Positions 4,959 to 29,892 of a stretch of DNA of 38,526 nucleotides are shown one piece after another. Where the stretch lies: assembly GCA_029907305.1 (NCBI GenBank), contig JARYMC010000001.1, forward strand, positions 1-38,526. Reading direction: 5' to 3'. The stretch is from Thermoplasmatota archaeon. GTDB taxonomy: Archaea > Thermoplasmatota > E2 > DHVEG-1. The translations under genes and the position numbers were made by a program. The notes below the pieces were generated by a model, which saw nothing but the letters and a program-made list of their open reading frames with translations, was not told the DNA's origin and ran no database searches. The stretch's first letter is position 1. Each line of letters starts with the position of its first letter.

Positions 4959-5145
4959 ATATCTCTTCATTAGACAAAATCTTTCAAAAAAAGAACCTTT
5001 CTGTTCTCAAAATAAAAAACAAACTCCAAGAAAAAAATCACACACAGGTTCACTATATAGGACTATGCATTATCTTTTAAAAAGAAGACGTGAAAATATC
5101 TTAAAAAGTATGATGCGACCATTGTAATAGGAAGTACTAAAATCC

Positions 5146-5340
5146 ATGTTTTTTGTTTTTGCATTGCTGATTGATACACTCATTCCACTTGAGATAATAA
5201 GGGTATTATCATCACATTGGGGGTACATTATTGCCTTACTTATCTTAGCTATATTCTTGTATGTTGAGATAAAAATTTACAGCTCATTTTGGGGTAAAAA
5301 TGGTCGTTTGTCTCTTGAAAAATACAAAGAAAACAGATAA
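5146..5340 (+). CDS. Hypothetical small membrane protein
   Basis: 64-aa ORF with two hydrophobic stretches. No recognisable family. Confidence 0.2.
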   Translation: MFFVFALLIDTLIPLEIIRVLSSHWGYIIALLILAIFLYVEIKIYSSFWGKNGRLSLEKYKENR

Positions 5341-5363
5341 AAAAAGTTAGAAAAAAAAATTAT

Positions 5364-5528
5364 TTATTGTTTTTTCCTAGCCCAGTTATAATGTCTCAAC
5401 TTACTTGACTCGCCGAAACCACAAGAAGAGCATCTCCTCTTCTGCATATGAAAAGAATGCTTGCCGCATCTTCTACAAATCGTATGGGTTTTTTTGCCGC
5501 CAAAATGGGATGATGTTCCTTTCGTCAT
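5364..5528 (-). CDS. rpl37e: 50S ribosomal protein L37e
   Basis: Not in the ORF track (54 aa). My translation is [54 protein letters not shown], with the C4 zinc ribbon typical of L37e. It sits downstream of the LSm gene, as in many archaea. Confidence 0.9.
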
Positions 5529-5543
5529 AAATCAAACCTCATT

Positions 5544-5762
5544 TCATGGGGATATATAGATTATGTTGTCCCCTCTAACAATAATTGTATCATGTTTCTT
5601 AACTAATTCACCGTTCACTATCTCATCAGCTTTTTTGAGAACAAGGTTCATATGAGGGACATCATAGCCATCAAGGATACCATGATATCCTCTTCCGCCT
5701 CTAAGCTCCACGATGACACGGTTGTTTAAACTAGCATGCAGTATCTTAAGTGGTTTTTCCAT
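5544..5762 (-). CDS. Sm-like (LSm) RNA-binding protein
   Basis: 'MEKPLKILHASLNNRVIVELRGGRGYHGILDGYDVPHMNLVL...IIVRGDNIIYISP' carries the Sm1/Sm2 motifs. I prefer the ATG at 5762 over the longer track ORF (5816). Confidence 0.85.
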   Translation of the reverse strand: MEKPLKILHASLNNRVIVELRGGRGYHGILDGYDVPHMNLVLKKADEIVNGELVKKHDTIIVRGDNIIYISP

Positions 5763-5870
5763 AAAGCTACCTAGGAAACACGAAATAAACATCGTGTTTA
5801 TAAGGATTTGGGACAAACAAAAAAAAAATGTTGGGTAACATTAAAAAACAAAAAAGAACTAACATGTCTG

Positions 5871-6409: not shown

Positions 6410-6790
6410 ATGAAAACCGGTATGGGAATTGTCAATAAGATTTGGGGTGATAAAAAATCAGGTGATGTTGGAGGATATATTGATCTAGAGAAATATGTGG
6501 AATCAACTGAAACACCACAGCCAGCAAAAATGTATGTGAGGGTTGGTGAGATACAGAGGTATGAGGATTTAAAAGAGCTCACAGATTATGTTTACGGCGG
6601 GAATGTTTTAATACTTGATTTCGCTGCTATAGCCGAGGAAGAGGTTATTCTAAAAAGGATAACAAATGACCTAAAAAAACTTGTTTCTGAGATAAATGGT
6701 GACATCGCAGGGATTGGGAATAACTTGATGATTGTTTCTCCATCTGGTGTGAAAATAGATAGAAGGAAAATACGTGGGAGATACGCTTAA
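6410..6790 (+). CDS. sepF: Cell-division protein SepF-like (DUF552)
   Basis: ~125 aa. Core 'YVRVGEIQRYEDLKELTDYVYGGNVLILDF...LKRITNDLKKLVSEINGDIAGIGNNLMIVSPSGVKI' matches the SepF pattern. Confidence 0.7.
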   Translation: MKTGMGIVNKIWGDKKSGDVGGYIDLEKYVESTETPQPAKMYVRVGEIQRYEDLKELTDYVYGGNVLILDFAAIAEEEVILKRITNDLKKLVSEINGDIAGIGNNLMIVSPSGVKIDRRKIRGRYA

Positions 6791-6820
6791 AAAAAAATTT
6801 TAGTTTTCTTAATTCTTTCA

Positions 6821-6881
6821 CAAAAAAACCTTCTTTTTTTTTCTTTACTCCTTTTTTTTACCAAAAAAAACTTTTTTTTTT
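6821..6881. terminator. Two A-tract/T-tract palindromes (candidate bidirectional terminators)
   Basis: 'caaaaaaaccttcttttttttt' (6821-6842) and 'ccaaaaaaaactttttttttt' (6861-6881) lie between sepF and the convergent tRNA. Confidence 0.3.
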
Positions 6882-7085
6882 CTAGTCTGCCCCTTTTATC
6901 CTAATGTTTTTTTTTTAAATAAAAAGGTGGGGGGAATCTGGGTTATGTGGATGGTAAGATGAAAGGAAGAAATAAAAACTCCAGATCCCTCTAAGTTATA
7001 CTTTGTAGAATGTAATATATATAGTTATCGTGTAAAATTATCTTTTTGAAAAAAAACACACACACAAAAAAAAAACCAAGAAAAA

Positions 7086-7157
7086 CGGACCCACGGGGAT
7101 TCGAACCCCGGTATCCGGCTCCGAAGGCCGGAAGGATATCCACTACCTCATGGGCCC
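7086..7157 (-). tRNA. tRNA-Arg (anticodon UCG)
   Basis: Reverse complement is GGGCCCAUGAGGUAGUGGAUAUCCUUCCGGCCUUCGGAGCCGGAUACCGGGGUUCGAAUCCCCGUGGGUCCG. It has a 7-bp acceptor stem (one G-U), an anticodon stem CCGGC/GCCGG with loop CUUCGGA, and a T-arm CGGGG-UUCGAAU-CCCCG. No encoded CCA. Confidence 0.85.
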
Positions 7158-7358
7158 TTATATAAAATTCTCAGAAGCACAATTACCACATACTGATATA
7201 AACTTGTCTAAAAAAAATTATTCAACACCAACTAATAAAAGAAAGATATAAATAGACATAAAATATATCAAACCAAGCGGATGAGATGCATACATAGAAG
7301 TTGAAAATGTTAGTTATATTTAGATTAAACTAAACAAAGTCTTAAAGATGTAACAGGG

Positions 7359-9761
7359 ATGCGGATGCGTTACATAAGAGGAAATAAAAAAGTAAAAAAA
7401 ATCGTTTTCAAACAGGAGGAATCTGTCTTGAAAAAAGACAGAGAAAAACCATTCAAAAAAACATCATCCTCCTCAAAAATAGATGAAAAAAAACTATTAG
7501 AAATAGAAAAAAAGATAGACGAAACCATAACAAAAAACAAAGAAACAACAGCTGAAAAAAACCTTGTAGAAAGATACTCATTCAAAAACAAACAAGGAGA
7601 AGCCATATATTTCCTAAAAGAGAAAAAAAACAATAACACTGAATCTAAAGATCTAAAAGAAGATGAAAAAGAATTTATAGAAGAACAACCAACCAATCAT
7701 AAAAACCAGGAAACAAACGGTTCTATAGATAAAAAAATAGATGAAATAATTTTTTCAAAATATGATGATAAAACAGGGGAGATAAAAACAGAAAACAGCG
7801 GAATTAAGAAAAAAGAAATCCTTTTAGAAAAGAACAAAACTGTAGACAAAAAAACAAAAAAAGAGAAAACTGCTAAAAATAGAAAATTAAGACTAAGAAT
7901 AGGAAAAAAAACCTTAAAACCAGATGAATTACCAGAAGAAGAATACGATGAAACTGAACCGCAAACTGATACTAACCTGTTGGATTCATCTGAAAAAGAT
8001 GATTTAAGTTTAACAGACATTTTGACGGCAAATGTTCAAGAAAATGGTTTAGAACATGTTTTTTTTGATGAGGTGGATATAAGTTTTGGTGGATGGAGCC
8101 CGAGGATAACTGATCAAGAAAAAAAGGATCTAGCATTGCCTTTCCAGGCTAAACCAGAGATTAAAAACGAGAACATGGTTGAGGCTGAGATACCAAAGGA
8201 ACTGTTCAAAGACAAATCCATGATAATTAAGGAGCTTGGTTTAAAAGAAAACGAATGGGAGGAGCTAGAGTTTTATCCACTAAAAGAGCCGTTTGCTTAT
8301 GTAGAAATATTACGTGAAAAAGAAAGCCTTGATAAACGCTATTTTTTAGTTGAAGTTGATTTAGATGAAGAAGAACAAAGGCTGGTAAAATTTATCACAG
8401 AAACCCTAACTACTTTATCAATAAATTATTTAGAGATGCAGTCAACTGGTGATGAGAAGTATCTGGTAAATAAAGTGGATGAGGTTATCAAAGAGTATGG
8501 TCTTAAAATAAGAGATGAGTCTAAAAAAAAGATATTGTATTATATCGAAAAAAGTTCTCTAGGGCTTGATAAAATAGATCCACTTATGAGGGATCCTAAC
8601 ATTGAGGACATATCATGTGATGGAGCTAACATACCAATCTTTTTGTATCATAGGAAGTATGGTTCACTTAAGAGCAATATTGATTTTAAAAGTGAGGATG
8701 AGCTTTCTTCTTTTATTTTTAAGCTTGCTCAGAAATGTGGTAAACACATAAGCATAGCGGAACCCATGCTGGATGCAACAATGCCAGATGGCTCAAGGAT
8801 ACAGATGACGCTTAGCGATGAGATCACTGCTAAGGGTTCAACGTTTACAATCAGGAAGTTTAGGGAAAACCCGTTCTCGCCACCTGATCTGGTTGAGTTT
8901 AACACGATGTCATCAGAGATGCTAGCTTATATGTGGCTTGCTGTTGAAAACGGTGTTAACACACTCATAGCAGGTGGAACAGCCAGTGGCAAAACCACTG
9001 TACTAAACGCACTCTCACTGTTTATCCCACGAGAATCAAAAATAGTAAGCATAGAAGAAACACGTGAAATCAACCTACCACACCCCAACTGGATACCAGG
9101 AGTAGCAAGAACAGGATTCGGAGAAATCGTACAAGACAAAATGGTCGGAGAAATAGACATGTACGACCTAATGAAAGCAGCACTAAGACAGAGACCAGAA
9201 TACATAATAGTAGGAGAAATCAGAGGAAAAGAAGCATACGTACTATTCCAAGCAATGGCAACAGGACACGCAACATACTCAACAGTACACGCAGACTCAG
9301 CTAAATCACTTATACACAGGCTTGAGGGTAAACCCATTGAGATACCTAGGATTATGTTACAGTCGCTTGATATTGTAACCATTCATATAACCACGCGTGT
9401 TAAAGGTAAACGTGTTAGGAGATGCAAGCAGATCATTGAGATAATAGACATAGATCCTACGACAAAAGAGATTCTTACAAACGAGGCTTTCCACTGGGAT
9501 CCTGTTGAGGACAAGTTCATCTACACTGGTAAAAGCTATGTTTTAGAGGGTATACGGGCCCGCTGGGATATGAACAAAGAGGAGATTGTTAATGAGCTTA
9601 GAAAAAGAGCTGAGATCCTAGAGTGGATGCGTGAAAAAAATGTTAGGACATTCAAAGAAGTAGCAAGGGTTATATCAAAGTATGCTGAAAACCCTGAAGA
9701 GGTTATGAAATTAGTTAAACAAAAAAAAGATGAAAACGTGATAAAAGATGCCTCTAACTAA
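7359..9761 (+). CDS. Type IV filament/secretion ATPase (FlaI/TadA/VirB11 superfamily) with a long Lys/Glu-rich N-terminal extension
   Basis: Walker A 'GGTASGKTT' (8974-9000), 'SIEETREI', Walker B-like 'PEYIIVGEIRGKEA', and 'GHATYSTVHA'. The first ~300 aa are low-complexity K/E/N-rich. Confidence 0.9.
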   Translation: MRMRYIRGNKKVKKIVFKQEESVLKKDREKPFKKTSSSSKIDEKKLLEIEKKIDETITKNKETTAEKNLVERYSFKNKQGEAIYFLKEKKNNNTESKDLKEDEKEFIEEQPTNHKNQETNGSIDKKIDEIIFSKYDDKTGEIKTENSGIKKKEILLEKNKTVDKKTKKEKTAKNRKLRLRIGKKTLKPDELPEEEYDETEPQTDTNLLDSSEKDDLSLTDILTANVQENGLEHVFFDEVDISFGGWSPRITDQEKKDLALPFQAKPEIKNENMVEAEIPKELFKDKSMIIKELGLKENEWEELEFYPLKEPFAYVEILREKESLDKRYFLVEVDLDEEEQRLVKFITETLTTLSINYLEMQSTGDEKYLVNKVDEVIKEYGLKIRDESKKKILYYIEKSSLGLDKIDPLMRDPNIEDISCDGANIPIFLYHRKYGSLKSNIDFKSEDELSSFIFKLAQKCGKHISIAEPMLDATMPDGSRIQMTLSDEITAKGSTFTIRKFRENPFSPPDLVEFNTMSSEMLAYMWLAVENGVNTLIAGGTASGKTTVLNALSLFIPRESKIVSIEETREINLPHPNWIPGVARTGFGEIVQDKMVGEIDMYDLMKAALRQRPEYIIVGEIRGKEAYVLFQAMATGHATYSTVHADSAKSLIHRLEGKPIEIPRIMLQSLDIVTIHITTRVKGKRVRRCKQIIEIIDIDPTTKEILTNEAFHWDPVEDKFIYTGKSYVLEGIRARWDMNKEEIVNELRKRAEILEWMREKNVRTFKEVARVISKYAENPEEVMKLVKQKKDENVIKDASN

Positions 9762-10611
9762 TTACCAGAAAATGTGTTACAGGAGACTAGGTGATGTCGC
9801 GGAAAATGCGGTTACTGAAAAGCTTAAACAAAACCTTGAGAGCGCACACATTGAGATGCGCGCCGGTGCATACCTCTCATATGCATGGGTTAACACCGTA
9901 TTAGCTGGTACAATAGCTGTTTTACTTTATCTTTCTTTTATCATGCTAATTAAAATGGAGCTAGTTATAACCTTGTTACTAGCAATATTCCCAGCTCTTG
10001 CAACTCTCGGTATCTATCTTTATTATATGCATGCACCTGGTTTAAAGGCTAGGGCACGTGGTAAAAAAATCGATTTGCATCTACCTTATGCGCTTAATTT
10101 TATTTCAGCTATGTCATCCGCTGGTATAACGCCTACAGAGATCTTTAAAAGTCTTTCTAAACAGGATATCTATGGTGAGATAAGGGATGAGGCTCTTTGG
10201 ATATACCGTGATGTCAGCCTCTTAGGTAAAGATATCATCTCTGCTATAAAAGCAAACATAAACAGGACTCCCTCTGCTAAGTTCAAAGAGTTTCTACAGG
10301 GTGCTGTTGTAACCGTTCAATCAGGTGGTAGCCTTAAACCATATTTTATGGCAAAGGCTGATCAGTACATGCGTGAAAACAGGTTGGCGCAGAAACAACT
10401 CATAGAAAGTTTAGGGATCATGGCTGAGTGTTATGTTACAGCAGCGGTTGCAGGTATACTGTTGGTTATAATAATTATACCTCTTATGATGATGATATCC
10501 CAAAGTGGTACAGGTCAGTTGATTATTATGAATCTCTTCTCCTTTTTTGTTATACCCCTAATACATGTGGGGTTTGCGGTGGTTATTGCGCTTATGACTA
10601 CGAGGGTGTAA
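9748..10611 (+). CDS. Platform membrane protein, single T2SSF domain (FlaJ/TadB/TadC-like), half 1
   Basis: TM helices flank the cytoplasmic 'LPYALNFISAMSSAGITPTEIFKSL...GKDIISAIKANINRTPSAKFKEFLQGAVVTVQSGGSL'. Overlaps the ATPase stop by 14 nt. Confidence 0.8.
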   Translation: MPLTNYQKMCYRRLGDVAENAVTEKLKQNLESAHIEMRAGAYLSYAWVNTVLAGTIAVLLYLSFIMLIKMELVITLLLAIFPALATLGIYLYYMHAPGLKARARGKKIDLHLPYALNFISAMSSAGITPTEIFKSLSKQDIYGEIRDEALWIYRDVSLLGKDIISAIKANINRTPSAKFKEFLQGAVVTVQSGGSLKPYFMAKADQYMRENRLAQKQLIESLGIMAECYVTAAVAGILLVIIIIPLMMMISQSGTGQLIIMNLFSFFVIPLIHVGFAVVIALMTTRV

Positions 10612-10615
10612 AAAA

Positions 10616-11530
10616 ATGGTTGCGGAAATAAAAAAACCTAGTTTGATAAAAAACCTGATTCTCACAGGGCAGCTTACCAGACTAATAATATACCTATGTG
10701 TGACTATACCTGCTATAATTTTTATTATCTTTGCCCTGTTGGTTCATCTGGGCTTGACGGGCCCACTTGTTATAGGACCTCTACGTATCGGTACATCCTT
10801 GGATTTCATCCTTTTCGCGATCTTCCTTGGCACAGGAACATTTGGTATATATGAATATTTTCATATGCGTAGGGTTCGTAAGATAGATGACAGGTTCCCT
10901 GATTTCGTCCGTGACCTAGCTGAGTCTAGGCGTGCTGGTATGACTTTCACAAAAGCAATCTTGTATGCATCTAAGGGGAACTATGGTGTTTTAACATCTG
11001 AGATAAAAAAGATATCACAGCAGATATCCTGGGGTAGTAGCGTGGAGGAGGCTCTGGCTGCTTTTGCCAAGAGGGTTAACACAAGGTTAATTAGGAGGAT
11101 TATTTCTTTGATTATTGAGGCTAGCCGTAGTGGTGGTAACGTTGCTGATGTGCTTGATGCTGCATCTAGGGATGCAAGGGAGATAAGGTTGTTGGAGCGT
11201 GAGAGAAGATCAAATATGATGTCCTACGTGGCAATAATCTATGTTGGTATGGGTATATTTCTGTTGATAATCGCCATATTATGTGTTACCCTTATCCCTG
11301 CTATGACTGGTGAAGGATCCGCAGCTCTTTCAGCTGCAACAGGTGGAAAAGGGATGATCACAAAAGCAGACATAGTCCCTGTGTTTTTTTATGCTAACCT
11401 TTCTCAGAGTATCGGTATGGGGCTGGTGACAGGTGTTTTTGAGGAGGGGAATGTTGCCTCAGGGATAAAACATGTTTTTATAATGTCTCTGGTGACATGG
11501 GTTGTGTTCAAGTTTGTGATAGGGTTGTAG
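10616..11530 (+). CDS. Platform membrane protein, single T2SSF domain, half 2
   Basis: 'FPDFVRDLAESRRAGMTFTKAI...SWGSSVEEALAAFAKRVNTRLIRRIISLIIEASRSGGNVADVL' plus C-terminal TM helices. Starts 4 nt after the previous stop, in a different frame. Confidence 0.8.
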   Translation: MVAEIKKPSLIKNLILTGQLTRLIIYLCVTIPAIIFIIFALLVHLGLTGPLVIGPLRIGTSLDFILFAIFLGTGTFGIYEYFHMRRVRKIDDRFPDFVRDLAESRRAGMTFTKAILYASKGNYGVLTSEIKKISQQISWGSSVEEALAAFAKRVNTRLIRRIISLIIEASRSGGNVADVLDAASRDAREIRLLERERRSNMMSYVAIIYVGMGIFLLIIAILCVTLIPAMTGEGSAALSAATGGKGMITKADIVPVFFYANLSQSIGMGLVTGVFEEGNVASGIKHVFIMSLVTWVVFKFVIGL

Positions 11531-11579: not shown

Positions 11580-11657
11580 CGTCACGATATGATTAAATAC
11601 TAGTTTAGATAAAGTATAGCGTATTGAGGGGTGTGTTGCACATCTGGTGAAAATGGT

Positions 11658-14600
11658 ATGAAGAAAAATAACAGAGCGGTTTCACCTGTGATCTCAGCTG
11701 TTTTAGCTTTGATGATTGTTACTTCCACGATGACCGCTGTTTTCGTCTGGGGTGTACCATATATTGATCAGATTAACACTGTTACATCCATAGAAAACTC
11801 TTTAAACCAGTTCACCTCATTTATTGATTCTATAGGTGAGTTGACTAATTCCTATGTTAATGATAGTAGAATAAACACGTTAGGTGTTAGTAAGGGTAGT
11901 GTTTCTGCTGGTGTTGACGAAGGAGGAAAAGACAGGGTTGTTGTTACGTATTCATATGATGAGGGTTATGATTTCACTGTATCTGGTTTGGATACCTGTT
12001 TTTTAGCTGGGACAAAGGTTTTGATGGCAGATGAGTCTTATAAGAACATTGAAGAGATAAATATTGGTGACATGGTTTTATCATATGATGAACATCTTGG
12101 CAGGGTTGTTTCCTGTAGGGTAGTTAATGTTTTTGCTCATCATCCTAGTGAGATGGGTGATTATTATCTTGTAATAAATGATGGTTTGAGGGTTACTCCT
12201 AATCATAGGTTTTATTCTAATGGTAGATGGGTTTATGCCGGTAATCTAAGAGTCGGGGACCCGTTGTTTGGTAAGGATATGGGTTCTAACTATCAGGTTG
12301 TTTCTATTAAAAAAATATATGAGCGGGAGCAGAGTTTTGATTTAGAAGTTGAAGGTTGTCATACGTATTTTGTATCAGTTGGTGGTGTTGATGTTCTTGT
12401 GCATAATGATGATGTGCAATCCCCTGAAAATAAATTGGTTCTATACCCTGAAAAGGATACACATATTAGGGAATTTCACAACACTAAAACTGGTGAAGAT
12501 CATCGGTACCTAAATTTTGGTGGATCTCCAAAACTTAGTGTAGATCTACTCGCTGATCTATTTGGGATATTTTTGGGGAGAGAACATATTCTCATTAAAT
12601 TTGATCTAACAAGCATCCCGATTGGTTCAACCATAGTATCCGCGAAATTAGGCTTATATTATTACGAGTGGGGATATAAAAATTTGTGGTATGATAATCC
12701 TTCCGGTAAAAAACTTGAATGCCATAGGTTAAAGCGTGATTGGAAGGAAGGAAATGGACCGGATGAAGGGATAAGAGGGAACGCAAATTGGTTTAATTCA
12801 ACAGATGATGAAAAGTGGGATATCCTGGGAGGGGACTACGATAATGCTGTTACAGCCTCTGCAGAAATGCCAAACATAGGTAAGGATCCCCCTTATGATC
12901 CTGCATGGATTTATTTGGATGTAAAAAGCGATGTAATAAAATTTTTAAATGACGCACCAAATCATGGGTGGCTACTAAAATATGAAGATCCCCAATATGG
13001 AGTTATTCGGAGTTTTTTAGCTAATTTTACCTCAAATGAAACCACTGTTCAAGATCCGAATACTGGTGATATCGCGAGACCAAAACTAGAAATCATATAC
13101 CTGAAAACAGAAACACTTGGTGCAACCAATGTCCAGAAAAACCGTGCTACTCTTAAGGGCAAAGTAGTCTCATATGGTAATGGTTGTAAATATGGTTTTT
13201 ATTATAGAAAATATGGTACTGACAACTGGTTTTTTACAGGATGGCCAAACATAAATATGACGACAAATGGAGAATTCAGCAAACCTATACAAGGGCTTTC
13301 ACCTGGGTGTCTGTATGAGTACCGTGCGAGCATAAAATGCACATACCAATCCACTGATTACATAAATAACGGGTCTATCATGTATTTCCTTACACCTGGG
13401 GAGATAACCAATTTTAATGCAACTGCTGTTACACCTAGGGATATAATTCTTAAATGGGATCTAGTTGATAACGCAAAGGGGGCATACATTGAATGGTTTA
13501 CAACCCCACCGCCAAGCCCATGGAATCCAGAGCCTTATAACCAAAGCCGTAACAAGGTAGGCATAGATGGTTATTGCGAGGGTGAAAGTTTTCAACATAC
13601 TGGTCTAACACCAAGGACAACCTATTATTACAAGGCATGGGCATATGCTCGTAATAGTGGTTGGATATCAAATGGTAGTGCAACTGCTCCATTTGGAAAC
13701 ACATGTACTAAAGAGGAGGAAACATTTGATGCACCAATCATTTTTACTTATCCGTCACCAAATGTGAATCGTTCAAGGGATGCGACACTAAGAGGACTTC
13801 TCACACATACTACAACTGGAGAAAACTGTATGGTTTGGTTTGATTATGGTCTAACCCCAGCATGTGGCACTGCATCCAAAGACCGTGATTGGACAAATGG
13901 AACTGGTACGTATGATTTTAATATAACCATTGATGGGTTAAAACCAGGTACAAAATACTATTACCGCGCAGTATACGAAGCCGTATACGGAGGAGGCTAT
14001 AAATGTAGATATAGAGACCCAAATATCTCTAGTTTTACAACTCTTATAAACGACTTGGAGGTTGTTTCACCTCAATATAGTGACAGCTGGATAAAAGGGA
14101 TCACCCATAAAATAGAATGGTACTATGGACCAAAGTTAAAAGGTACTAACGTAACTATTGAGTTATATATAGGAAAAGATCCTTGTTATGGAGCAATAGA
14201 TGGGTATGATTACGTGGAGCTGCCCATAAACTATAGTGGAACCGATAAAAACGGGTCATTTAACTGGGTTATACCAAAGAATCTATCCAGTGGTAAATTC
14301 ATCTATAGGATAAAGATAACTAGTGTTTTTGACCAGAATATATATGATTACAGTGATTATTTTTCAATAAGAGATATACATGAAGGAATAGTGTGGAATA
14401 GAACAATAACACCAACACACGAAGGAGACAACAGATATCGGGTTAACTGTGGGTCATCTAGTTGTGAGGGAGATGAATCTTTTAATATCACAATGATAAA
14501 AGGTATTTTAACTAGAGCCGAGGTATACGGGCTTTATTACGGGGGAGAACTATGTGATTGCTCGTTCAGAGGAACAGTACAAATAGACCTATATAACGAT

Positions 14601-15068
14601 AGTTATTGTTTTGGTAGCATCATCCTCCTGGATTCTGATTCCTTAACCTACGAATCTCCATCTAGTAGCGGAACCTATATTTCAACAATTGAAAACGGCG
14701 GGCTTTTATATTCTGATCCCAACATAAATAAATATCTGAAAAAAACACCACCTATTTATGCTGGTGGAGGTGTTTTTTCAATGCATGCGATACAAATTGT
14801 TGCATCACCTTTTTCAGCAGGGGGAAGCAATGGTTTTAGGATCAGGGTAAAAACCGTTGTTAACGTAAACAGTATAAGAGAAAAGGATTATGTTTATAAT
14901 CTTAGACTACAGTTTTATGGTGACAACTCTGATTTGTGGTTAAAATATTTCAGGATTAACTACCCTGTTTTTGAGAGGCAGGGTGACACATTGTTTTATA
15001 CCTCTTCTTCTACATCTAAACTGTGGTTTGTGTTTTCACATACCGCGATTCAGATCAGTTTTGTATGA
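11658..15068 (+). CDS. Giant pilin-like surface protein: class III signal peptide, Hint domain, DNRLRE-like, FN3-like and Kre9/KNH-like modules, pilin-like C-terminal domain
   Basis: The ATG at 11658 is preceded by GGTGA (11646-11650). The track ORF starts at the GTG at 11631. N-terminus is 'MKKNNRAVSPVISAVLALMIVTSTMTAVFVWG'. Other motifs are 'ILIKFDLTSIPIGSTIVSAKLGLYYY' and FN3-like 'GLTPRTTYYYKAWAY' and 'GLKPGTKYYYRAVYE'. The N- and C-terminal ends resemble ORF 15194. Confidence 0.8.
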   Translation: MKKNNRAVSPVISAVLALMIVTSTMTAVFVWGVPYIDQINTVTSIENSLNQFTSFIDSIGELTNSYVNDSRINTLGVSKGSVSAGVDEGGKDRVVVTYSYDEGYDFTVSGLDTCFLAGTKVLMADESYKNIEEINIGDMVLSYDEHLGRVVSCRVVNVFAHHPSEMGDYYLVINDGLRVTPNHRFYSNGRWVYAGNLRVGDPLFGKDMGSNYQVVSIKKIYEREQSFDLEVEGCHTYFVSVGGVDVLVHNDDVQSPENKLVLYPEKDTHIREFHNTKTGEDHRYLNFGGSPKLSVDLLADLFGIFLGREHILIKFDLTSIPIGSTIVSAKLGLYYYEWGYKNLWYDNPSGKKLECHRLKRDWKEGNGPDEGIRGNANWFNSTDDEKWDILGGDYDNAVTASAEMPNIGKDPPYDPAWIYLDVKSDVIKFLNDAPNHGWLLKYEDPQYGVIRSFLANFTSNETTVQDPNTGDIARPKLEIIYLKTETLGATNVQKNRATLKGKVVSYGNGCKYGFYYRKYGTDNWFFTGWPNINMTTNGEFSKPIQGLSPGCLYEYRASIKCTYQSTDYINNGSIMYFLTPGEITNFNATAVTPRDIILKWDLVDNAKGAYIEWFTTPPPSPWNPEPYNQSRNKVGIDGYCEGESFQHTGLTPRTTYYYKAWAYARNSGWISNGSATAPFGNTCTKEEETFDAPIIFTYPSPNVNRSRDATLRGLLTHTTTGENCMVWFDYGLTPACGTASKDRDWTNGTGTYDFNITIDGLKPGTKYYYRAVYEAVYGGGYKCRYRDPNISSFTTLINDLEVVSPQYSDSWIKGITHKIEWYYGPKLKGTNVTIELYIGKDPCYGAIDGYDYVELPINYSGTDKNGSFNWVIPKNLSSGKFIYRIKITSVFDQNIYDYSDYFSIRDIHEGIVWNRTITPTHEGDNRYRVNCGSSSCEGDESFNITMIKGILTRAEVYGLYYGGELCDCSFRGTVQIDLYNDSYCFGSIILLDSDSLTYESPSSSGTYISTIENGGLLYSDPNINKYLKKTPPIYAGGGVFSMHAIQIVASPFSAGGSNGFRIRVKTVVNVNSIREKDYVYNLRLQFYGDNSDLWLKYFRINYPVFERQGDTLFYTSSSTSKLWFVFSHTAIQISFV
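11997..12407 (+). other. Hint (Hedgehog/intein-like) domain, copy 1, 137 aa
   Basis: Starts at Cys ('CFLAGTKVLMADESY'), has block B 'VTPNHRF', and ends 'GVDVLVHN'. The next residue is Asp (12408-12410). No endonuclease insert. Confidence 0.75.
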
Positions 15069-15109
15069 TGATGCAGATTCTTTGTTTTAATAATATCATA
15101 TTTTTAAAG

Positions 15110-15150
15110 AAAAAAAATTTGTTTAAGTTTGTCTACGTAGTATTTATATA
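15110..15150 (+). promoter_or_regulatory. Shared upstream motif plus TATA-like box for ORF 15194
   Basis: 'aaaaaaaatttgtttaagtttgtc' (15110-15133) is followed by 'tatttatata' (15141-15150), ~45 nt before the ATG. Confidence 0.35.
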
Positions 15151-15193
15151 AGAGAAATAGGATTACTTGTTATAATTTGAGTGGGATAGTTGG

Positions 15194-16192
15194 ATGCATA
15201 CTCTTAGTAATTATGCTGTAACTGAGGTTCTAAGTCTTGTCACTGTTGTTATAATTGCATCATCAGCTATCACCGCGGTGCTTTTATGGGCTATACCAGA
15301 GTTGGATGCTAAGAAGCAGTCTGTTCGTATTGATAGTGCTTTGACACAGTTTAAGACCATAAGAGATGTTATAGAGGATGTTACCAGCGGTGGTGCTGGT
15401 GCAAGTAATTTCGTTGATTTTGTAACAGATGCTGGTGATGTTTCCTTGGATTCTAAAGGCGATAGGTTTATTTTTTACTATTCGCTTGTTGAAGGTTTTG
15501 ATTTCAATGTATCTAATCTTGGTGATAGTTACGATAGAAAATTTGGTTTTAAAATAGAAAGCGCTGCTGGACCTGGATCCGCTGTGGATTCTTTTTTAAC
15601 AATATATTATCTATATAGTGGCGAATCGGAAACCGTACCAATTACTAATCAAGTTGAAATCTCTAAGAATTTAGCAGATGCCGTTAAAATAGATGTTACC
15701 TATTCTGGTAAAATTTCTGGTCGTATCTGGCTTTTTGACTCAGGATACTTATCATACGAAGTAGCATCCAGCTCCGGGGTTTTTAGGCTTTTTGCTGAGA
15801 ACGGAGCAACTATCTCAGTATACCCCTCTGGTTATCTATACCATAAACCTGGTTTTTACAACAAAGATAACTCAGTTGTTATGAAAATGATACAGATAAA
15901 ACCAGGTGATATAAGAGGTGGAAGCGGGAAAGGCGTATACAAATTCCTAATCAGATCAAATGCTAGCTACGTAAGAGAGGTTAAAGCAGATATACATGGA
16001 TGTTTTAAAATGCAGATATATGGGGGTAACAGTGAGGCTTGGGTAAGGTTTTACACGATGGAACATGGTTTCAAAAAATTTGGTTCAACCCAAGGAGGTT
16101 CTCTCTCTCAAGATACATTGTATCTGGAGGCGGGTAAAACCTTTTCGCTTGTTCAATCAGTTTGTGATGCTAGGTTGGTGGAAATAAAATGA
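15194..16192 (+). CDS. Pilin-like protein (class III signal peptide), 332 aa; uninterrupted paralog of the ORF 11658 scaffold
   Basis: N-terminus 'NYAVTEVLSLVTVVIIASSAITAVLLWAIPELD'. Both N- and C-terminal regions align by eye with ORF 11658. Confidence 0.7.
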   Translation: MHTLSNYAVTEVLSLVTVVIIASSAITAVLLWAIPELDAKKQSVRIDSALTQFKTIRDVIEDVTSGGAGASNFVDFVTDAGDVSLDSKGDRFIFYYSLVEGFDFNVSNLGDSYDRKFGFKIESAAGPGSAVDSFLTIYYLYSGESETVPITNQVEISKNLADAVKIDVTYSGKISGRIWLFDSGYLSYEVASSSGVFRLFAENGATISVYPSGYLYHKPGFYNKDNSVVMKMIQIKPGDIRGGSGKGVYKFLIRSNASYVREVKADIHGCFKMQIYGGNSEAWVRFYTMEHGFKKFGSTQGGSLSQDTLYLEAGKTFSLVQSVCDARLVEIK

Positions 16193-19100
16193 GGAGTATA
16201 ACCTACGATAGAAAGGGTGTTTCAAATATTCTTGGTTACGTTTTTTCATTTGGCGTAGCATCTATGTTGATGATTAGCGCTGTTCTTATAACCACAGGTA
16301 TACTTGATAACAGAACCGCTGCTGTTGCAGGTATGCAGGCTCAGAGTGTTGCCAACAAGATAGCAGACGCGGTTGTAGAGGCAATCGCGGTACTACAGTC
16401 TCCATCTAACATGGGTTATAAAAAAACCTTGGATATACCTATGGATATAGCTGGGCGTAGCTACTATGTTGATGTCACAGATAAACTGATATACGTAAAC
16501 ACCACAGATGGGCTGGTGAGCAGAAGCTGCCCAACCTACACAGCTGAGGACCTAAAAATCGGTGTTGGTGGTGGTAGAACATATTGTGGTGGCGTAGGCA
16601 AGATCAATGTTTCTGTTGATAAATCTGATACACTCTATAAACTGGATTTCGGATCAGGAAACACAACCAGGCATTCACCTGTTGCATCAGGATATTATTT
16701 TGTGAGTAACACATCTGCAATAAAGCCTGAGTTAAGGGACCCACCTTGGTGGAATACTAGTTATACAAACAGGGTTCCAATATTGATAAACAACACCTCA
16801 CCATATGATCTGGTAAATGTACCAGTTAAGGTAGTTCTCAACACATCAAATTTTGATTACAGCAAGGCAAATGTGGTTTTTGAAGAATCTTCTTCAAATT
16901 TTACATCTAATCTTGTTTTTAATGACCCCTCAGATAATGCTGTGACTAAGATCGAAATCCTTACAAAGGAATGGAACCCTGGTTGGTTTTATACTTACTA
17001 CTATCCTACTGAAAACACTGTTACTGTTAGAATCAAAGAGATTGCTGGAGGATATGATATATCCTACATAAGAGGAGAAACCATTAAGTTAAACGGAAAT
17101 GTAAAAAGAAAATCATGGGATGCATCTACAGGTATTGCTAAATTTGATGGCAAAGAAGCTCTGGAGTCGCTTGAAAACGGGGAACATTTCCTAAAAAAAT
17201 CTAGGTACACTGTTACTGTTTCTGGTTTACTTAAAAACGGGGTTGAATTCTACGGCTTAGGAGATATATCTATAAATGCTGTGTACGTTCGCCCCGGGGA
17301 TAGCATAAAAAATGCTATTCAGAGATCATCCCCAGGGGGCACGGTTTTTGTATACAAAGGAACATATGTTGAAGAGGGTTTAAGTATAAATAAACCGTTG
17401 AATCTTATTGGCGAAAGCAGGGATGAAACTATTTTTAATGTAAATAAAAGTTATAAAACTGCCATCAATATAGATAGCACATCTTATGTAAATATCGACT
17501 CCTTCTGGGTATACCCAAAGCTACAATCTAATGAACCTGGGAGTGGACCTGGGATTGGTATAGATGTCAGTAAGTGTGAACATGTTAATATCACAAACTG
17601 TAGGATAAACAAAACTGCAAAAGGCATAAGAATAGGTGATTTATCATCTGATGTTTCTATATCAAATTGTTTAACATATGACATAACGCCCTCCGACGAC
17701 GTGCGTGGGAATGGAATAGCTGTTGCGAACAGCAAATACGTTCGTATCACAAACTGCACAACATATCATCTTAATACAACCCTTGGCGACGGTTTTGATA
17801 TTCGCTCATCTGAGTACGTCGATGTAATAAGATGCATATCTCATAGCCATTATGGAAAGAGGGCAAATGGGGTAAAGTTAATAGCTAGTAATCATTGTAA
17901 CGTAATAGACAGCAGGTTCTATAATCTCACTGGTAACGCAACAGCTGGTGTAGAGATCTGCGCAGATGTTAATGGAAACCCAAGCAAATATAATGTGGTA
18001 AAAGGCTGTGTTATATATGGGAACAACGCATCTGGTGCTCCAAATGATGTAGGACGCGGGGTTTATATCGCGGATGCGGGCACTGATTATAACATTATTG
18101 AGAATTGTACTATTTACAAAAACAGCATAGGCATACAATTTACAACTATTATTGCTTATGAGTTTGAAAAACTCAGCCTCATATTGGAAGGGCTCCTTGA
18201 TTTTTTTAAGGAGGGACCAAAATCTCATAACAGTATACTAAACTGTAGTATATACGAAAATCTAAACCATGGCATAGCTTTTTTCCATATGCTAGGTAAT
18301 AATATCAGCAACTGCAACATTTATAACAATGGCATAAACCCAAACATGGGTACATCGTTTGATGACCCATGTGGCATTCTTCTCGTAGCTTCTGGAAAAA
18401 ACAACATAACAAATTGTAACATCTATAAAAACGGTCTAAGTGATAAATCGGGTGGCTGTGGTCTTATTTTAATATTTGCTGGATGGAACCATATAGAATA
18501 TTGTAACATATATGGCAACATTAAAAGTAGCAGCCATCTCAAGTCTGGGGATGGTATTAAACTTATGTCATCTTATGGTACTTTTTCTCTGACAGGATGC
18601 GGATTTAACGAAATAAAATATTGTAATGTCTTTGATAACGGCAGAGATGGCCTCGAGTTATACAAAGGCAACACTTTAAACAAAATTTCCAATTGCAATT
18701 TCTATTGCAATGGTGAAAAAGGAGTCTACATTAGTGGTATTAATCCTTCTAATCAGATAGAGTATAGCAATTTCGAAAAAAACGGTGAAAATGCCAATGA
18801 TAGTATATTAGGAGGAATAAATTCTTGGAATGGAAATTTTTGGGATGACTTTGAATCTAATTGTGGACACGATGATGGTTATTATTGTATCCCACCTGGT
18901 ATTTGTGGGGAGGAGAAATGTCTTGGTCATGGAGATGATAACCCGCGATCTACTCGTAACCCAAATCCTGCTTTTTTCCAAGTTGACTACAGTTACTCTG
19001 CTGAGGATTTCTACCACACGCGATCAATAAAAAATGCACTACAAAACATGGATACCATGGAAGTTGGAGGGACTGTAAAGGTTTATGCTGGTACTTATAA

Positions 19101-21633
19101 CGGCATCGTAACAATAAAACAAGCAAATGTTAAGCTAATAGGCGAAGGAAACGTTATTGTCAGTGGTAATGATCCACCACTGAAATCAACAGCTATCACT
19201 GTGAAAAATTATAGTGTCAGCATAGAAGGATTAACAATAAAAGATAGCCTAAGAGGAATATGGTATAAAAATAACCTTTCTTCAGGAGGTTTACCTTTAA
19301 AAATCAAAAATTGCAAAATAGAAAACAATACCCAAGAAGGCATTTATCTAGGGGGAAACAGCAACAACTACTGCATTATAAATAGCTGTAACATATCCAA
19401 CAATAAATATGGCATATATGGTGGTACAAATGGTAACAAAATCATAGACTGCACCATCAAAAATAACAATGATGCTGGTGTTAAAATCAAAAACCGTAAT
19501 TCAAATAACTTCACAAACTGCACTTTATCTAATAACAAAATCGGTTTCATCATAGAATCTGGTTCTGATAACATCATCATCAACTCCAGGATACTTAATC
19601 ATGAAAACGAGGGTATCAAAATCTCAGGCTCCTCTAATAACAATATTTTGAATTGTAATGTAAATGGTAATAATGAAGGTATTAGTATCACAGGTTCTTC
19701 CACTAACAACAAGATTTCAAACTGTACTATAAATTACAACGCTAAGGGCATCTATATTGATTCCTTAGGAAATGCTAGCTATAACGAGATCAGTTACTCT
19801 AATATATCTGGTAGTACAAATGGTGTAGAGATAAAAGATTCTTTTGACAATACTATCACGTACTGTAATATTTATAACAATAGCAACGGCGTCTATATAC
19901 ATGACAACACTCCGCTATCATGTAATTATATTCTTTGCGAGAATATTATCACAAACTGCAGCATATATAATAACAATAATTACGGTGTTTTGACTAATAC
20001 ATCATCATATTACAACAAAATATATCACAACATTTTTAAAAACAAAAAAAACGCTAACGCTAAGGAAAAAAAATATCCGAACATATGGGATAATGGTTAC
20101 CCAAGTGGTGGAAACCTATGGTCTGACTATGATGACGAATCAGATAATGCCTTTGACTACTTCAGCGGAGAAAGCTATCCCCCTGGAGGTCAAGAGGACC
20201 CTGGCAGCGACGGCATAGCAGACAAACCATACAACAAAAACGGTGTGAAAGACAAATATCCATTCTGTAGAAAAAACCCTAGGATACCCTACTACATAGA
20301 TTACTGGAACCCACATGGTGAATCTGTGATCCTAGTAAACATAAGCATAGGAGCACACTCAGCTAAATGCATAAATCTATACTATGGGTATGATGGAGCA
20401 TTAGAAAAAATCCATAATCATACCATGAATGAGATATCACTGTTTTTTGATGACTTCCTCGGAACTAGTATTGATACAAACAAGTGGCTACGGCTACAAG
20501 CTTCAGAACCAATTACGCCGAAATATAAAGTCCAAGACGGGTGTATCAATTTTTCAGATGAAGGAAACATCACAACAAAAGATTTTGCCATACCAGATAT
20601 TGGGGATCCACCAAAAAATACACTGTCTCTAACCACAAACGAGTCAATGTACATCGTTGAAGCAAAAATGAAAATAAACAGAGGGCAGGGTAATATGATT
20701 TTACTGAAAATAGGCACTAATAGATCCTACTATTTAGTTTCAGCTAATGCAACACCATCACATACCCTCTCTCTTCATAAAAATTGTTTACCTCCACATA
20801 AAACATTTTATGAATTAGATAATGCCCCCTCATCAAACCTAAGCCACTGGATAAGAATGAAAGCCTACATACACCTAAGCAAAACCTACTACCCAGACCC
20901 ATATAATCCAAGCAAGTACTTACAAACAAATGCTACATTTATAAAAACCTATGTCTATGATTACAATACATTTGCTGATCTAGCCAGCGTCTCAGCTTTA
21001 GATACATGGAGCTACCCAGGAAGTTGGTCTGAGCCACCATACGAAGCAGCACAAGGCAAACCATATCCATACCCAGGACACAATGGTAAAATTGGTTTAG
21101 GATCCGGAATACTATCCTCAGAAGTTAGCAACGTCTTAATCGACTGGATAAGGGTAATGAAAACCCCGGTTGTTCAACCAACAGTCACAGTTGGAAGCAT
21201 GGAATCCATAAACTACGGATGGGACACATCAGGTGTAAAAACCTGGAACACAAACAACCCAAACCCATTTGAGCTAACAAACCCAGTGCTCTGTGATTTC
21301 AACTATGGTATTAGTAGCCCCACTGGGCCGAGCTTAAGTATAAACTTTGTAATAAAAAATTTACCCGCTGGTAAATATACTATCACAGTTACAAAAGGTA
21401 ACTACACAAACACAACCGACCAAATAACAGTTACAGTTACAGAAACCGGCAGCGAATCCAAAGAAATGAATATCCCAGATACAGACTACGGTAAATTCGA
21501 AACAAAATGGGTTACAATAAACAAAGAAAAAGATAACAGTGATATAAACATTGTTTTTTCCGGTAAAAAATGGCTTGTAAACTCAATTATCATAGACCGA
21601 GGAGCAAAAGGCGTTAAAGTAGGATGGGAATAA
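16189..21633 (+). CDS. Giant (1814 aa) pilin-like surface protein with DUF2341-like, two parallel beta-helix (PbH1/NosD-like) arrays and a LamG-like region
   Basis: ATGA overlap with the previous stop. N-terminus is 'RKGVSNILGYVFSFGVASMLMISAVLITTG'. DUF2341-like segment is 'WWNTSYTNRVPILINNTSPYDLVNVPVKVVLNTSNFDYSKAN'. Beta-helix array starts are 'GDSIKNAIQRSSPGGTVFVYKGTYVEEGLSINKPLNLIGE' and 'SIKNALQNMDTMEVGGTVKVYAGTYNG'. There are dozens of 'I.NC.IYNN..GI' turns. Confidence 0.8.
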   Translation: MRSITYDRKGVSNILGYVFSFGVASMLMISAVLITTGILDNRTAAVAGMQAQSVANKIADAVVEAIAVLQSPSNMGYKKTLDIPMDIAGRSYYVDVTDKLIYVNTTDGLVSRSCPTYTAEDLKIGVGGGRTYCGGVGKINVSVDKSDTLYKLDFGSGNTTRHSPVASGYYFVSNTSAIKPELRDPPWWNTSYTNRVPILINNTSPYDLVNVPVKVVLNTSNFDYSKANVVFEESSSNFTSNLVFNDPSDNAVTKIEILTKEWNPGWFYTYYYPTENTVTVRIKEIAGGYDISYIRGETIKLNGNVKRKSWDASTGIAKFDGKEALESLENGEHFLKKSRYTVTVSGLLKNGVEFYGLGDISINAVYVRPGDSIKNAIQRSSPGGTVFVYKGTYVEEGLSINKPLNLIGESRDETIFNVNKSYKTAINIDSTSYVNIDSFWVYPKLQSNEPGSGPGIGIDVSKCEHVNITNCRINKTAKGIRIGDLSSDVSISNCLTYDITPSDDVRGNGIAVANSKYVRITNCTTYHLNTTLGDGFDIRSSEYVDVIRCISHSHYGKRANGVKLIASNHCNVIDSRFYNLTGNATAGVEICADVNGNPSKYNVVKGCVIYGNNASGAPNDVGRGVYIADAGTDYNIIENCTIYKNSIGIQFTTIIAYEFEKLSLILEGLLDFFKEGPKSHNSILNCSIYENLNHGIAFFHMLGNNISNCNIYNNGINPNMGTSFDDPCGILLVASGKNNITNCNIYKNGLSDKSGGCGLILIFAGWNHIEYCNIYGNIKSSSHLKSGDGIKLMSSYGTFSLTGCGFNEIKYCNVFDNGRDGLELYKGNTLNKISNCNFYCNGEKGVYISGINPSNQIEYSNFEKNGENANDSILGGINSWNGNFWDDFESNCGHDDGYYCIPPGICGEEKCLGHGDDNPRSTRNPNPAFFQVDYSYSAEDFYHTRSIKNALQNMDTMEVGGTVKVYAGTYNGIVTIKQANVKLIGEGNVIVSGNDPPLKSTAITVKNYSVSIEGLTIKDSLRGIWYKNNLSSGGLPLKIKNCKIENNTQEGIYLGGNSNNYCIINSCNISNNKYGIYGGTNGNKIIDCTIKNNNDAGVKIKNRNSNNFTNCTLSNNKIGFIIESGSDNIIINSRILNHENEGIKISGSSNNNILNCNVNGNNEGISITGSSTNNKISNCTINYNAKGIYIDSLGNASYNEISYSNISGSTNGVEIKDSFDNTITYCNIYNNSNGVYIHDNTPLSCNYILCENIITNCSIYNNNNYGVLTNTSSYYNKIYHNIFKNKKNANAKEKKYPNIWDNGYPSGGNLWSDYDDESDNAFDYFSGESYPPGGQEDPGSDGIADKPYNKNGVKDKYPFCRKNPRIPYYIDYWNPHGESVILVNISIGAHSAKCINLYYGYDGALEKIHNHTMNEISLFFDDFLGTSIDTNKWLRLQASEPITPKYKVQDGCINFSDEGNITTKDFAIPDIGDPPKNTLSLTTNESMYIVEAKMKINRGQGNMILLKIGTNRSYYLVSANATPSHTLSLHKNCLPPHKTFYELDNAPSSNLSHWIRMKAYIHLSKTYYPDPYNPSKYLQTNATFIKTYVYDYNTFADLASVSALDTWSYPGSWSEPPYEAAQGKPYPYPGHNGKIGLGSGILSSEVSNVLIDWIRVMKTPVVQPTVTVGSMESINYGWDTSGVKTWNTNNPNPFELTNPVLCDFNYGISSPTGPSLSINFVIKNLPAGKYTITVTKGNYTNTTDQITVTVTETGSESKEMNIPDTDYGKFETKWVTINKEKDNSDINIVFSGKKWLVNSIIIDRGAKGVKVGWE
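17281..20056 (+). other. Right-handed parallel beta-helix repeat region (two NosD/pectate-lyase-like arrays)
   Basis: Periodic ~22-25 aa units such as 'NITNCRINKTAKGIRI', 'NISNCNIYNNGIN', 'NITNCNIYKNGLS', 'IEYCNIYGN', 'IINSCNISNNKYGIY', 'ILNCNVNGNNEGISI'. Confidence 0.75.
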
Positions 21634-21639
21634 AAAAAA

Positions 21640-22230: not shown

Positions 22231-22265
22231 AGAAAAAAACAAAAAAAAAACATAATGAGGATGTT

Positions 22266-22778: not shown

Positions 22779-22888
22779 AACAAAATCATAAAAAGAGAGG
22801 AATAATGCCAAAATGACATAATCTCATAAAAAATTTAAATAACAAAAATTGAAAAGTATAATATTAATAGTATGTGGAGAAAAAGCTC

Positions 22889-27464: not shown

Positions 27465-27478
27465 TATAACTAGGTTTT

Positions 27479-27814: not shown

Positions 27815-27822
27815 GATAACGT

Positions 27823-27981
27823 ATGTCGTCACATAAATCATTTGGTAGAAAAAACCGTCTTAATAAGGCGGTGAAAAGTAACAGGCGTGTACCAGCTTGG
27901 ATTATGATTAAAACCAACCGTAGGTTTACTCGTCATCCTAAGACGCGTAACTGGCGGAGAAATAAACTGAAGAGAGCGTAG
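27823..27981 (+). CDS. rpl39e: 50S ribosomal protein L39e
   Basis: Not in the ORF track (52 aa). My translation is [52 protein letters not shown]. Confidence 0.9.
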
Positions 27982-27987
27982 TTGTTT

Positions 27988-28611: not shown

Positions 28612-28614
28612 CGC

Positions 28615-29875: not shown

Positions 29876-29892
29876 CTAAATAGAAAGCAACG

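Follow-up and report, generated by a model that had tools for sequence, protein, structure and literature searches.

Type IV filaments are the main surface organelles of archaea, and the known maturation steps of their subunits are signal-peptide removal and glycosylation. Small autoprocessing Hint domains have been described in other settings. In polymorphic toxins, a HINT domain serves to release the toxin (PMC3482391). A-type bacterial intein-like (BIL) domains (Amitai 2003) keep a C-terminal His-Asn pair and lack a nucleophile at the residue that follows it (+1), and BIL domains without this nucleophile give mainly N- and C-terminal cleavage products (PMC7765530, PMC7664689). BIL2 of the Tetrahymena thermophila BUBL locus conjugates its N-extein to lysine ε-amines (PMC8616854). 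Here we describe a Hint domain within a pilin-like protein, pilin A, encoded in a 38,526-nucleotide stretch of a Thermoplasmatota archaeon genome (contig JARYMC010000001.1 of assembly GCA_029907305.1, positions 1 to 38,526; hereafter the window). The surrounding type IV filament operon comprises a T2SSE ATPase gene, two TadC-like platform genes and six pilin-like genes, the first of which encodes pilin A. From comparison of related sequences, the Hint appears to be a fixed, vertically inherited part of accessory pilin-like proteins of this operon in uncultured Thermoplasmatota. A putative self-cutting module at a fixed site in pilus-associated proteins suggests that these proteins may cut their own chain after export.

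The translation of window positions 11997-12407 (plus strand) is free of stops and gives the 137-residue peptide in which the first-pass annotation had recognized a Hint signature, with Cys at position 1, block B, a terminal Asn, Asp at +1 and no endonuclease. The translation and a match to the Pfam family PT-HINT (PF07591) bear this out. The domain occupies residues 123-259 of pilin A. Its N-terminal junction is Thr122-Cys123 (11994-11999), block B is Thr189-Pro-Asn-His192 (12195-12206), block F reads 'FDLEVEGCHTYF' (motif FDLEV..H) with Asp237 at 12339-12341, and block G reads 'VLVHN' and ends in His258-Asn259 (12402-12407); the +1 residue is Asp260 (12408-12410). All of the intein catalytic motifs and splicing blocks (A, B, F and G) are present, and the 137 residues include no endonuclease insert.

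PT-HINT was the top-scoring Pfam family (E = 9e-17; cut-off 27.7 bits), at 62.0 bits when the domain was scored and 58.2 bits over the full protein. Hom_end_hint (2e-9), Intein_splicing (6e-9), Hint (2.5e-8) and Vint (2e-6) also matched, with scores above or near their respective cut-offs; the Hint model, at 34 bits, covered the N-terminal part of the domain only. NCBIfam models detected only a DNRLRE domain and sub-threshold intein matches in pilin A. Among PDB sequences, phmmer identified the HINT of Streptomyces UmbC1 (8w20, 3e-15; identity confirmed in PMC11062931) and a C. thermocellum BIL (2lwy, 1.5e-8). An AlphaFold model of the domain with 15 residues on either side, computed from a 39-sequence alignment, had a pLDDT of 88 and a pTM of 0.82. 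The best Foldseek match of this model was BIL2 (6y75; E = 4e-11, TM 0.73/0.79), with the 2lwy BIL next (1e-9, TMt 0.85) and mini-inteins after the BILs; Hedgehog (1at0) ranked 43rd with an E value of 4e-5. The top 49 listed PDB matches were all BIL domains, inteins, a Vint domain or Hedgehog. The segment is a true mini Hint whose catalytic residues are all intact, and it belongs to the HINT superfamily. The first-pass annotation had proposed profile and fold searches as a check; a Pfam match and a Hint fold were found, so that neither an absent profile match nor an absent Hint fold, which it had named as telling against a Hint, applies. The likeness it had drawn to BIL and Hedgehog-type domains holds for the BILs, which are the closest solved structures. 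It does not hold for the Hedgehog Hog domain, to which the resemblance is at the fold level only: the pilin Hint is internal, its His-Asn pair is conserved and it has no sterol-recognition region.

Pilin A is encoded at 11631-15068 (plus strand) by an open reading frame of 1145 codons from a GTG. The ATG at 11658, with GGTGA upstream, is a likelier start and gives a protein of 1136 residues, which is database protein MGF3584119.1 (P0001), beginning MKKNN and entitled 'MAG: polymorphic toxin-type HINT domain-containing protein [Thermoplasmatota archaeon]'. Read directly, the N-terminus is 'MKKNNRA/VSPVISAVLALMIV' (slashes mark cleavage sites or junctions), with basic residues and an Ala motif followed by a hydrophobic helix. 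The cleavage context, 'KKNNRA/VSPVISAVLALMIVTSTMTAVFVW', and the family consensus, A.SPV.S..L.L.IV, are what we take to be a typical euryarchaeal prepilin-type signal. The N-half of the pilin-like module (11658-11996, plus strand) consists of this class III prepilin-type signal, a long helix and four β-strands, and ends at Thr122, the residue that precedes the Hint (-1). In an AlphaFold2 model of pilin A the helix spans residues 6-63 and the strands residues 71-110, in a numbering that is that of the open reading frame minus 8. The placement of the Hint in a protein with a prepilin-type N-terminus, as first proposed, is upheld by this reading, by the modeled helix and by the position of the gene inside a type IV filament operon.

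The mini-intein-like Hint of BIL/PT-HINT type (11997-12407, plus strand; assigned from Pfam, PDB sequence and AlphaFold2/Foldseek comparisons) is followed by a variable passenger, residues 260-972 (12408-14546, plus strand), which was delineated with Pfam, NCBIfam, AlphaFold2 and Foldseek. The passenger contains a DNRLRE domain (residues 294-488), a Kre9/KNH-like Ig domain (residues 813-913) and β-sandwich modules resembling FN3 or the N-terminal domain of purple acid phosphatases; the modeled modules are all-β. With the full-length model as query, Foldseek found FN3/Ig arrays and alpha-2-macroglobulin-like proteins and nothing else, and was uninformative on the Hint and the pilin module.

The remaining residues, 973-1145 (14547-15065, plus strand), are the C-half of the pilin-like module. 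They were recognized by alignment to pilin B, a Hint-less paralogue of 332 residues encoded at 15194-16192 (plus strand) in which, from its open reading frame and this alignment, N-half and C-half are contiguous. BLASTP aligned pilin A residues 13-120 with pilin B residues 5-109 (E = 4e-14) and pilin A residues 982-1120 with pilin B residues 163-299 (E = 5e-11). In Hint-less orthologues of pilin B the family model DUF7289 (238 positions) scores 34-43 bits, above its cut-off of 27, and covers both halves, the N-half with model positions 2-86 and the C-half with positions 100-210. The pilin A N-half gives a weak match to model positions 1-79. Because a single model spans both halves of the Hint-less orthologues, Hint and passenger would together split one module, and by this alignment they are inserted between positions ~86 and ~100 of DUF7289. 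The earlier proposal that processing detaches a short pilin from ~880 residues of adhesin is not supported, as the pilin-like module resumes, with its C-half, in the last ~170 residues (14547-15065).

The NCBI title of pilin A implies a different function, that of a toxin-release module in a polymorphic toxin. The domain does share with the PT-HINT family (PF07591; UmbC1, 8w20) its best profile and sequence match, a secreted multidomain host and a presumed autoproteolytic role, and the nearest non-archaeal relatives of the family Hints are the HINT domains of Streptomyces UmbC-type toxins. However, the pilin A Hint lies near the N-terminus, after the pilin N-half, and not just before a C-terminal domain. 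No toxin domain follows it: the passenger has modules of DNRLRE, FN3 and Ig-like type, and the protein ends in the conserved pilin C-half. No immunity-like gene comes next, that gene encoding a pilin-like paralogue, and the whole lies within a pilus operon. The pilin A Hint passes the PT-HINT profile and fails the contextual definition of the family. We give a toxin function almost no credence, and rejected it on this architecture.

A six-frame scan of the window with a hidden Markov model (HMM) of the family found two Hints only. The second (23270-23674, plus strand; PT-HINT, 1.7e-14) comprises residues 133-267 of pilin F, a protein of 1055 residues, annotated with Pfam, whose gene is the last of the block (22874-26041, plus strand). 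It reads 'AKT/CFLAGTKIVMADESY...DVLVHN/PPLY', with Thr at -1 and Pro at +1, and is 53% identical to the pilin A Hint. Both Hints have a G+C content of 0.36, and the host genes and the window one of 0.37-0.40. Pilin F runs from a prepilin-like N-terminus through the Hint, a PKD domain (Pfam) and a conserved segment to about residue 519, and then into FN3-like repeats. Short orthologues stop at the conserved segment, the FN3-like extension being optional, and by comparison of the sequences the layout of pilin F appears to follow the same logic of N-part, Hint and conserved segment as that of pilin A. The first-pass annotation did not extend to this second Hint gene in the operon, nor to the Hint as a conserved, vertically inherited feature of a family. 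The 3' end of the pilin F gene, encoding FN3-like modules, carries a 318-bp tandem repeat (25139-25862; 2.3 copies, 98% identical). Near-identical database versions of pilin F have 838, 949 and 1050 residues; the number of repeats varies or has been collapsed in assemblies.

Related loci (designated L) and proteins (designated P) came from an alignment query, as a locus search with the single protein gave one spurious bacterial match only. HMMs were built for N-half, Hint and C-half and were run over all collected proteins, 57 of which have the three in this order. A library of 1.84 billion proteins added 37 N-half/Hint/C-half representatives (clusters at 50% identity). Only the re-classified top 150 matches from that library were used; the search with the full-length profile was swamped by giant FN3-repeat proteins, and its counts of 81,565, 28,935 and 3,858 are not the size of the family. 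The layout of N-half, Hint, passenger and C-half is thus found in ~94 distinct proteins (57 + 37) from Thermoplasmatota metagenomes.

In 52 of the 57 collected proteins the Hint begins no more than 9 residues past the N-half and is followed by a passenger of 37-944 residues. The spacing differs in the other five (P0020, P0024, P0044, L013 and the L008 protein at 6750-8504); in the first four a passenger of 620-1257 residues lies upstream of the Hint, and the C-half comes within 30-143 residues after it. The N-half of P0022 is found as two HMM matches, with the layout unchanged. P0016 has a Hint at both edges of the passenger, one of them (residues 135-269) with its terminal Asn replaced and the other complete. 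In all 57 proteins the C-half ends 0-14 residues from the C-terminus. Many homologues are recognizable over N-half and Hint only. Alignment of pilin B orthologues showed the Hint cleanly present or absent at one site, and in the pilin B-type proteins of L010 and L018 a non-Hint domain occupies this site.

Two further arrangements were observed. In related operons the last pilin-like gene (L021 19198-23151, P0091, P0155, P0187 and P0125) encodes 2-5 tandem Hints, sometimes only ~10 residues apart, and many of these end in 'GILVHN/K', with a conserved Lys at +1. Bacterial alpha-2-macroglobulin-like proteins of ~1700-1850 residues, from Candidate Phyla Radiation (CPR) bacteria and Gammaproteobacteria, contain a related internal Hint ending in 'HN[QE]KGG' (loci L036, L037, L042, L043, L051 and L064; proteins P0065-P0074).

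Among described domains the A-type BILs (Amitai 2003; 2lwy) resemble the pilin Hint in their mini Hint fold, Cys1, TxxH motif and C-terminal His-Asn without a +1 nucleophile, and 2lwy is one of the two best structural matches of the pilin A domain. They are also alike in lying beside hypervariable regions of secreted or surface proteins, with predicted autocleavage at the N- and C-terminal ends; the passenger beside the pilin Hint varies in both length (37-944 residues) and domain content, and on its other side the Hint abuts the conserved N-half. In contrast to these BILs, the pilin Hint is archaeal, splits a conserved pilin-like module at a fixed site, occurs in two or three genes of one type IV filament operon and has a strong preference for Thr at -1. 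Set against the published description of A-type BILs and 2lwy, rather than a BIL profile, it appears to fit in all but its archaeal host.

Residue conservation was assessed in 125 distinct archaeal Hint copies, 96 of them full-length. Position 1 is Cys in every copy, TxxH is present in 124 (the sole exception is cut by a contig end) and the terminal His-Asn pair is kept by 94 of the 96. The -1 residue is Thr in 79 of 125 copies despite varied contexts (SGLDT, WLNDT, FNFDT, LSWST, PTKET and GIAKT). The +1 residue of the 94 His-Asn copies is Ala in 21, Asp in 20, Gly and Pro in 11 each, Lys in 10, Gln and Ser in 4 each, Asn and Glu in 3 each, Val, Leu and Thr in 2 each and Arg in 1; Cys is never found, and Ser or Thr together account for 6. 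All 15 invariant columns of a 37-sequence full-length alignment lie within the Hint, making it the best-conserved region of the protein. Several lineages have another residue, often Ser, in place of the terminal Asn ('VLVHS', 'VLVQS', 'FLV[RK]S' or 'VSVRV'), with Cys1 and TPNH kept. Besides the P0016 Hint noted above, such copies occur in P0058 and in L009 (6255-7790), L010 (1172-4261), L014 (3947-4933), L018 (3132-7232) and L021 (9962-13297). Because Asn has been lost in several lineages while Cys1 and TPNH are kept, the reaction at the N-terminal junction appears to be the invariant one. A few degenerate family members, P0090 and P0180, have Ser or Gly at position 1. Together with the loss of Asn in several lineages they might point to a catalytically dead Hint fold with a purely structural role, but every catalytic residue is kept in both window copies and in almost all relatives, a retention not expected without activity, and we consider a dead fold very improbable.

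The loci of the alignment query were retrieved with Hint-derived patterns and are therefore biased towards Hints, so frequencies were taken from a resample based on TadC2. In this sample the A-type gene has a Hint directly after the N-half in 20 of 20 loci (16 complete and 4 cut by contig ends) and the B-type gene has one in 6 of 16. Some relatives in the sample are without the entire pilin block, and more distant operons encode different large pilin-like proteins that are Hint-less. In a neighbor-joining tree the Hints group by class of host gene (first genes, last genes and, in another sub-lineage, last genes with several Hints), and this clustering argues for vertical co-divergence of the Hint with its host, not homing. 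Class 1 mini-inteins (Ssp DnaB, Npu DnaB and gp41-1) share blocks A, B, F and G, the fold and the terminal His-Asn with the pilin Hint. They differ from it at +1, which is Asp or Pro in the window and variable family-wide, in that the pilin Hint has no sign of homing, and in its host, a non-conserved surface protein with whose gene class the Hints co-diverge. Its +1 residue and its lack of signs of mobility set the pilin Hint apart from canonical inteins. A mobile intein was rejected, given the absence of an endonuclease, a G+C content like that of the host, the class-wise clustering, the presence of the Hint in 20 of 20 A-type genes and its variable surface-protein host. Its one intein-like trait is the presence/absence polymorphism of the B-type genes.

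With the identity of the domain, its fold, catalytic residues, architecture, conservation and synteny established, we infer the following course of events. Once the protein has been exported and its prepilin signal removed, the Hint would fold, and Cys123 would attack the Thr122-Cys123 bond (an N-S acyl shift) to give a thioester. Cyclization of Asn259 would break the Asn259-Asp260 bond. By established intein and BIL chemistry (PMC7664689, PMC7765530), the absence of a +1 nucleophile should preclude transesterification and a branched intermediate, and cleavage products should therefore dominate, the main outcome being scission of the chain and loss of the Hint from all copies that have the Asn. 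Hydrolysis, rather than ligation, would resolve the thioester. The product would be two chains, with the N-half, whose helix and small sheet would go into the filament, apart from the passenger and C-half. Because N-half and C-half belong to one module, non-covalent contacts would keep the chains together, and the presumed benefit of opening the loop is that the passenger, formerly anchored at both ends, could extend as a free arm. Breaking the chain between the halves would be a better fit to the family than release of a cargo, because the Hint can lie on either edge of the passenger but is always between the halves, because Cys1 is retained throughout even though some copies have lost Asn, and because +1 is free to vary, even to Pro. 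We rate the chances that this is a BIL-type autoprocessing Hint, with scission between the two pilin halves and not splicing as its outcome, at somewhat better than even.

Several observations weigh against this view. The association of the two halves is drawn from their homology and not from a structure, and DUF7289 scores only 19 bits on pilin A and 18.7 bits on pilin B in the window, below the cut-off of 27. All of the sequences come from metagenome bins. The pilin B-type proteins of L006 and L007 have a Hint with a linker of ~37-45 residues and no passenger, for which freeing an arm is no explanation. Chain scission accounts neither for the Asn-to-Ser variants nor for the tandem Hint arrays that the last pilin-like gene encodes in related operons. 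Finally, conserved Cys1 and His-Asn are equally expected of a splicing element, and A-type BILs are capable of low-efficiency splicing without a +1 nucleophile.

The first-pass annotation had considered canonical splicing unlikely, and the +1 residues (Asp in pilin A, Pro in pilin F, and 0 Cys and 6 Ser/Thr among 94 copies) agree with this. Splicing independent of a nucleophilic side chain would be another matter: Asn259 would cyclize, the freed +1 α-amino group would attack the Thr122 thioester and the chain would be re-joined. The mature protein would then be continuous and Hint-less, with the Hint either carried along harmlessly or acting as a timer, by which the pilin module would fold only once the protein had been exported. 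The chemistries of both junctions are conserved and the termini of the Hint are adjacent to each other in this fold, as this would require, and the B-type orthologues with and without a Hint at one site imply that a Hint-less product is functional. The closest structures are BILs, for which ligation without nucleophilic side chains has been reported (2lwy; Aranko 2013 and Dassa 2004, as these are described in PMC7664689 and PMC7765530). However, the same two sources report mainly cleavage products for BILs, and +1 is unconstrained in the family, with Pro, a hindered acceptor, in 11 of 94 copies including the pilin F Hint. Cys1 and TPNH persist in the lineages without Asn, which cannot free a +1 amine. 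Moreover, fast-evolving surface proteins should lose an element that is selfish or neutral, but the Hint is better conserved than any other part of these proteins and is present in all 20 A-type genes sampled through TadC2. We regard splicing of this kind as unlikely.

The thioester at Thr122 might instead be resolved by an amine or hydroxyl, from a Lys of the C-half, a neighboring subunit, a glycan or a lipid, leaving the N-half covalently attached to it. There are precedents in the cholesterol transfer of Hedgehog and the isopeptide conjugation of Tetrahymena BIL2, and a functional parallel in the sortase-built pili of Gram-positive bacteria. BIL2 (6y75/6tmm) is the top Foldseek match (TM 0.73-0.81, 27% identity) and, like the pilin Hint, is a Hint without canonical splicing that uses an N-junction thioester; it differs in being eukaryotic and cytosolic, in its ubiquitin-like flanks and in its conjugation to Lys. 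Cys1 is the sole absolutely invariant feature of the pilin Hints, even where Asn is lost, the -1 Thr persists in most copies despite differing upstream contexts, and some Hint subfamilies have a conserved +1 Lys. No conserved acceptor residue or adduct-recognition region is identifiable, though, and most copies keep a His-Asn pair that a pure Hedgehog-type transferase would not need. A transfer of this type has, in our estimate, a distinctly low probability. An equally small chance, argued by analogy, attaches to its more specific form, in which the Thr122 thioester passes to an amine, supplied by another pilus component or by the C-half, and a covalent (iso)peptide link results. That would amount to an enzyme-free, sortase-like building or locking of the archaeal pilus tip complex, in parallel to Lys conjugation by BIL2.

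Functional parallels to the preferred scheme, chain scission between the two pilin halves, exist outside the Hint superfamily. SEA and GAIN domains cleave themselves inside one folded module and their two chains stay associated, and the biogenesis of sortase-built Gram-positive pili passes through a thioester at a Thr carboxyl. These likenesses are functional only; the folds and the chemistry are unrelated, and no homology is claimed. A Hint or intein in a pilin-like protein is not mentioned in a review of archaeal type IV pili (PMC4858521), in a 2026 survey of type IV filament systems across archaea (10.64898/2026.04.22.720090) or in the polymorphic-toxin compendium (PMC3482391). Targeted full-text literature searches likewise found no description of such a protein or of such a step in pilus maturation, in agreement with the first-pass annotation, which knew of none. 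The domain itself had already been flagged by the HINT name at NCBI; what is new is its context and conserved architecture. If our reading is correct, an autocatalytic step of chain scission or ligation is added to archaeal pilus biogenesis, in two or three accessory pilins per operon, and the biology of BIL and PT-HINT domains reaches beyond bacterial toxins and adhesins, into archaea and into a context in which one domain is split. Natural variants (with or without a Hint at one site, without Asn but with Cys1, with a Hint at either or both edges, or in tandem) make the chemistry testable, and small Cys1/Asn Hints with any +1 residue, Pro included, may be useful protein-engineering tools.

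The operon lies on the plus strand. The assembly ATPase (T2SSE/PilB-like, 800 residues; 7359-9761, Pfam T2SSE 3e-36) is followed by the two platform genes (T2SSF/TadC-like; 9748-10611 and 10616-11530, Pfam T2SSF 4e-19 and 2e-23), which lie directly 5' of pilin A in a synteny kept in more than 20 loci. The window has this one ATPase gene; L003, L007, L008, L021 and L025 have two consecutive ones, of ~900-990 and ~570-660 residues. Downstream of pilin B, a gene at 16189-21633 encodes a pilin-like protein of 1814 residues with a DUF7266 N-terminus, long right-handed β-helix/NosD repeats and a DUF2341 domain (Pfam). Its start overlaps the preceding stop by 4 nucleotides (16189-16192), which suggests translational coupling. 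Two small pilin-like proteins, recognized from their translations, are encoded at 21640-22230 and 22266-22778, before pilin F; the order of these genes and of the β-helix gene is conserved in related loci. No Peptidase_A24-like gene was found in the window, and a search of contigs with the 332-residue pilin B as query gave no match.

Genes for S19e, L31e, eIF6 and a tRNA synthetase flank the pilin-like block in the window, at 26994-32673. In several relatives (L081, L085-L088, L091, L098 and L105) the TadC-like gene is followed directly by these genes, so the whole ~15-kb pilin-like block (11631-26041) is an insertion/deletion difference between relatives. Upstream of the operon, ~1.2 kb of the window (4567-5808) has no open reading frame of at least 100 codons and no Rfam match. 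A lone tRNA-Arg(TCG) gene lies just 5' of the pilus operon, on the minus strand at 7086-7157. A serpin gene cut by the window edge (77-610) is found near a Peptidase_C25 (gingipain-like) gene (1497-2912), a protease/inhibitor pair close to the surface-protein operon.

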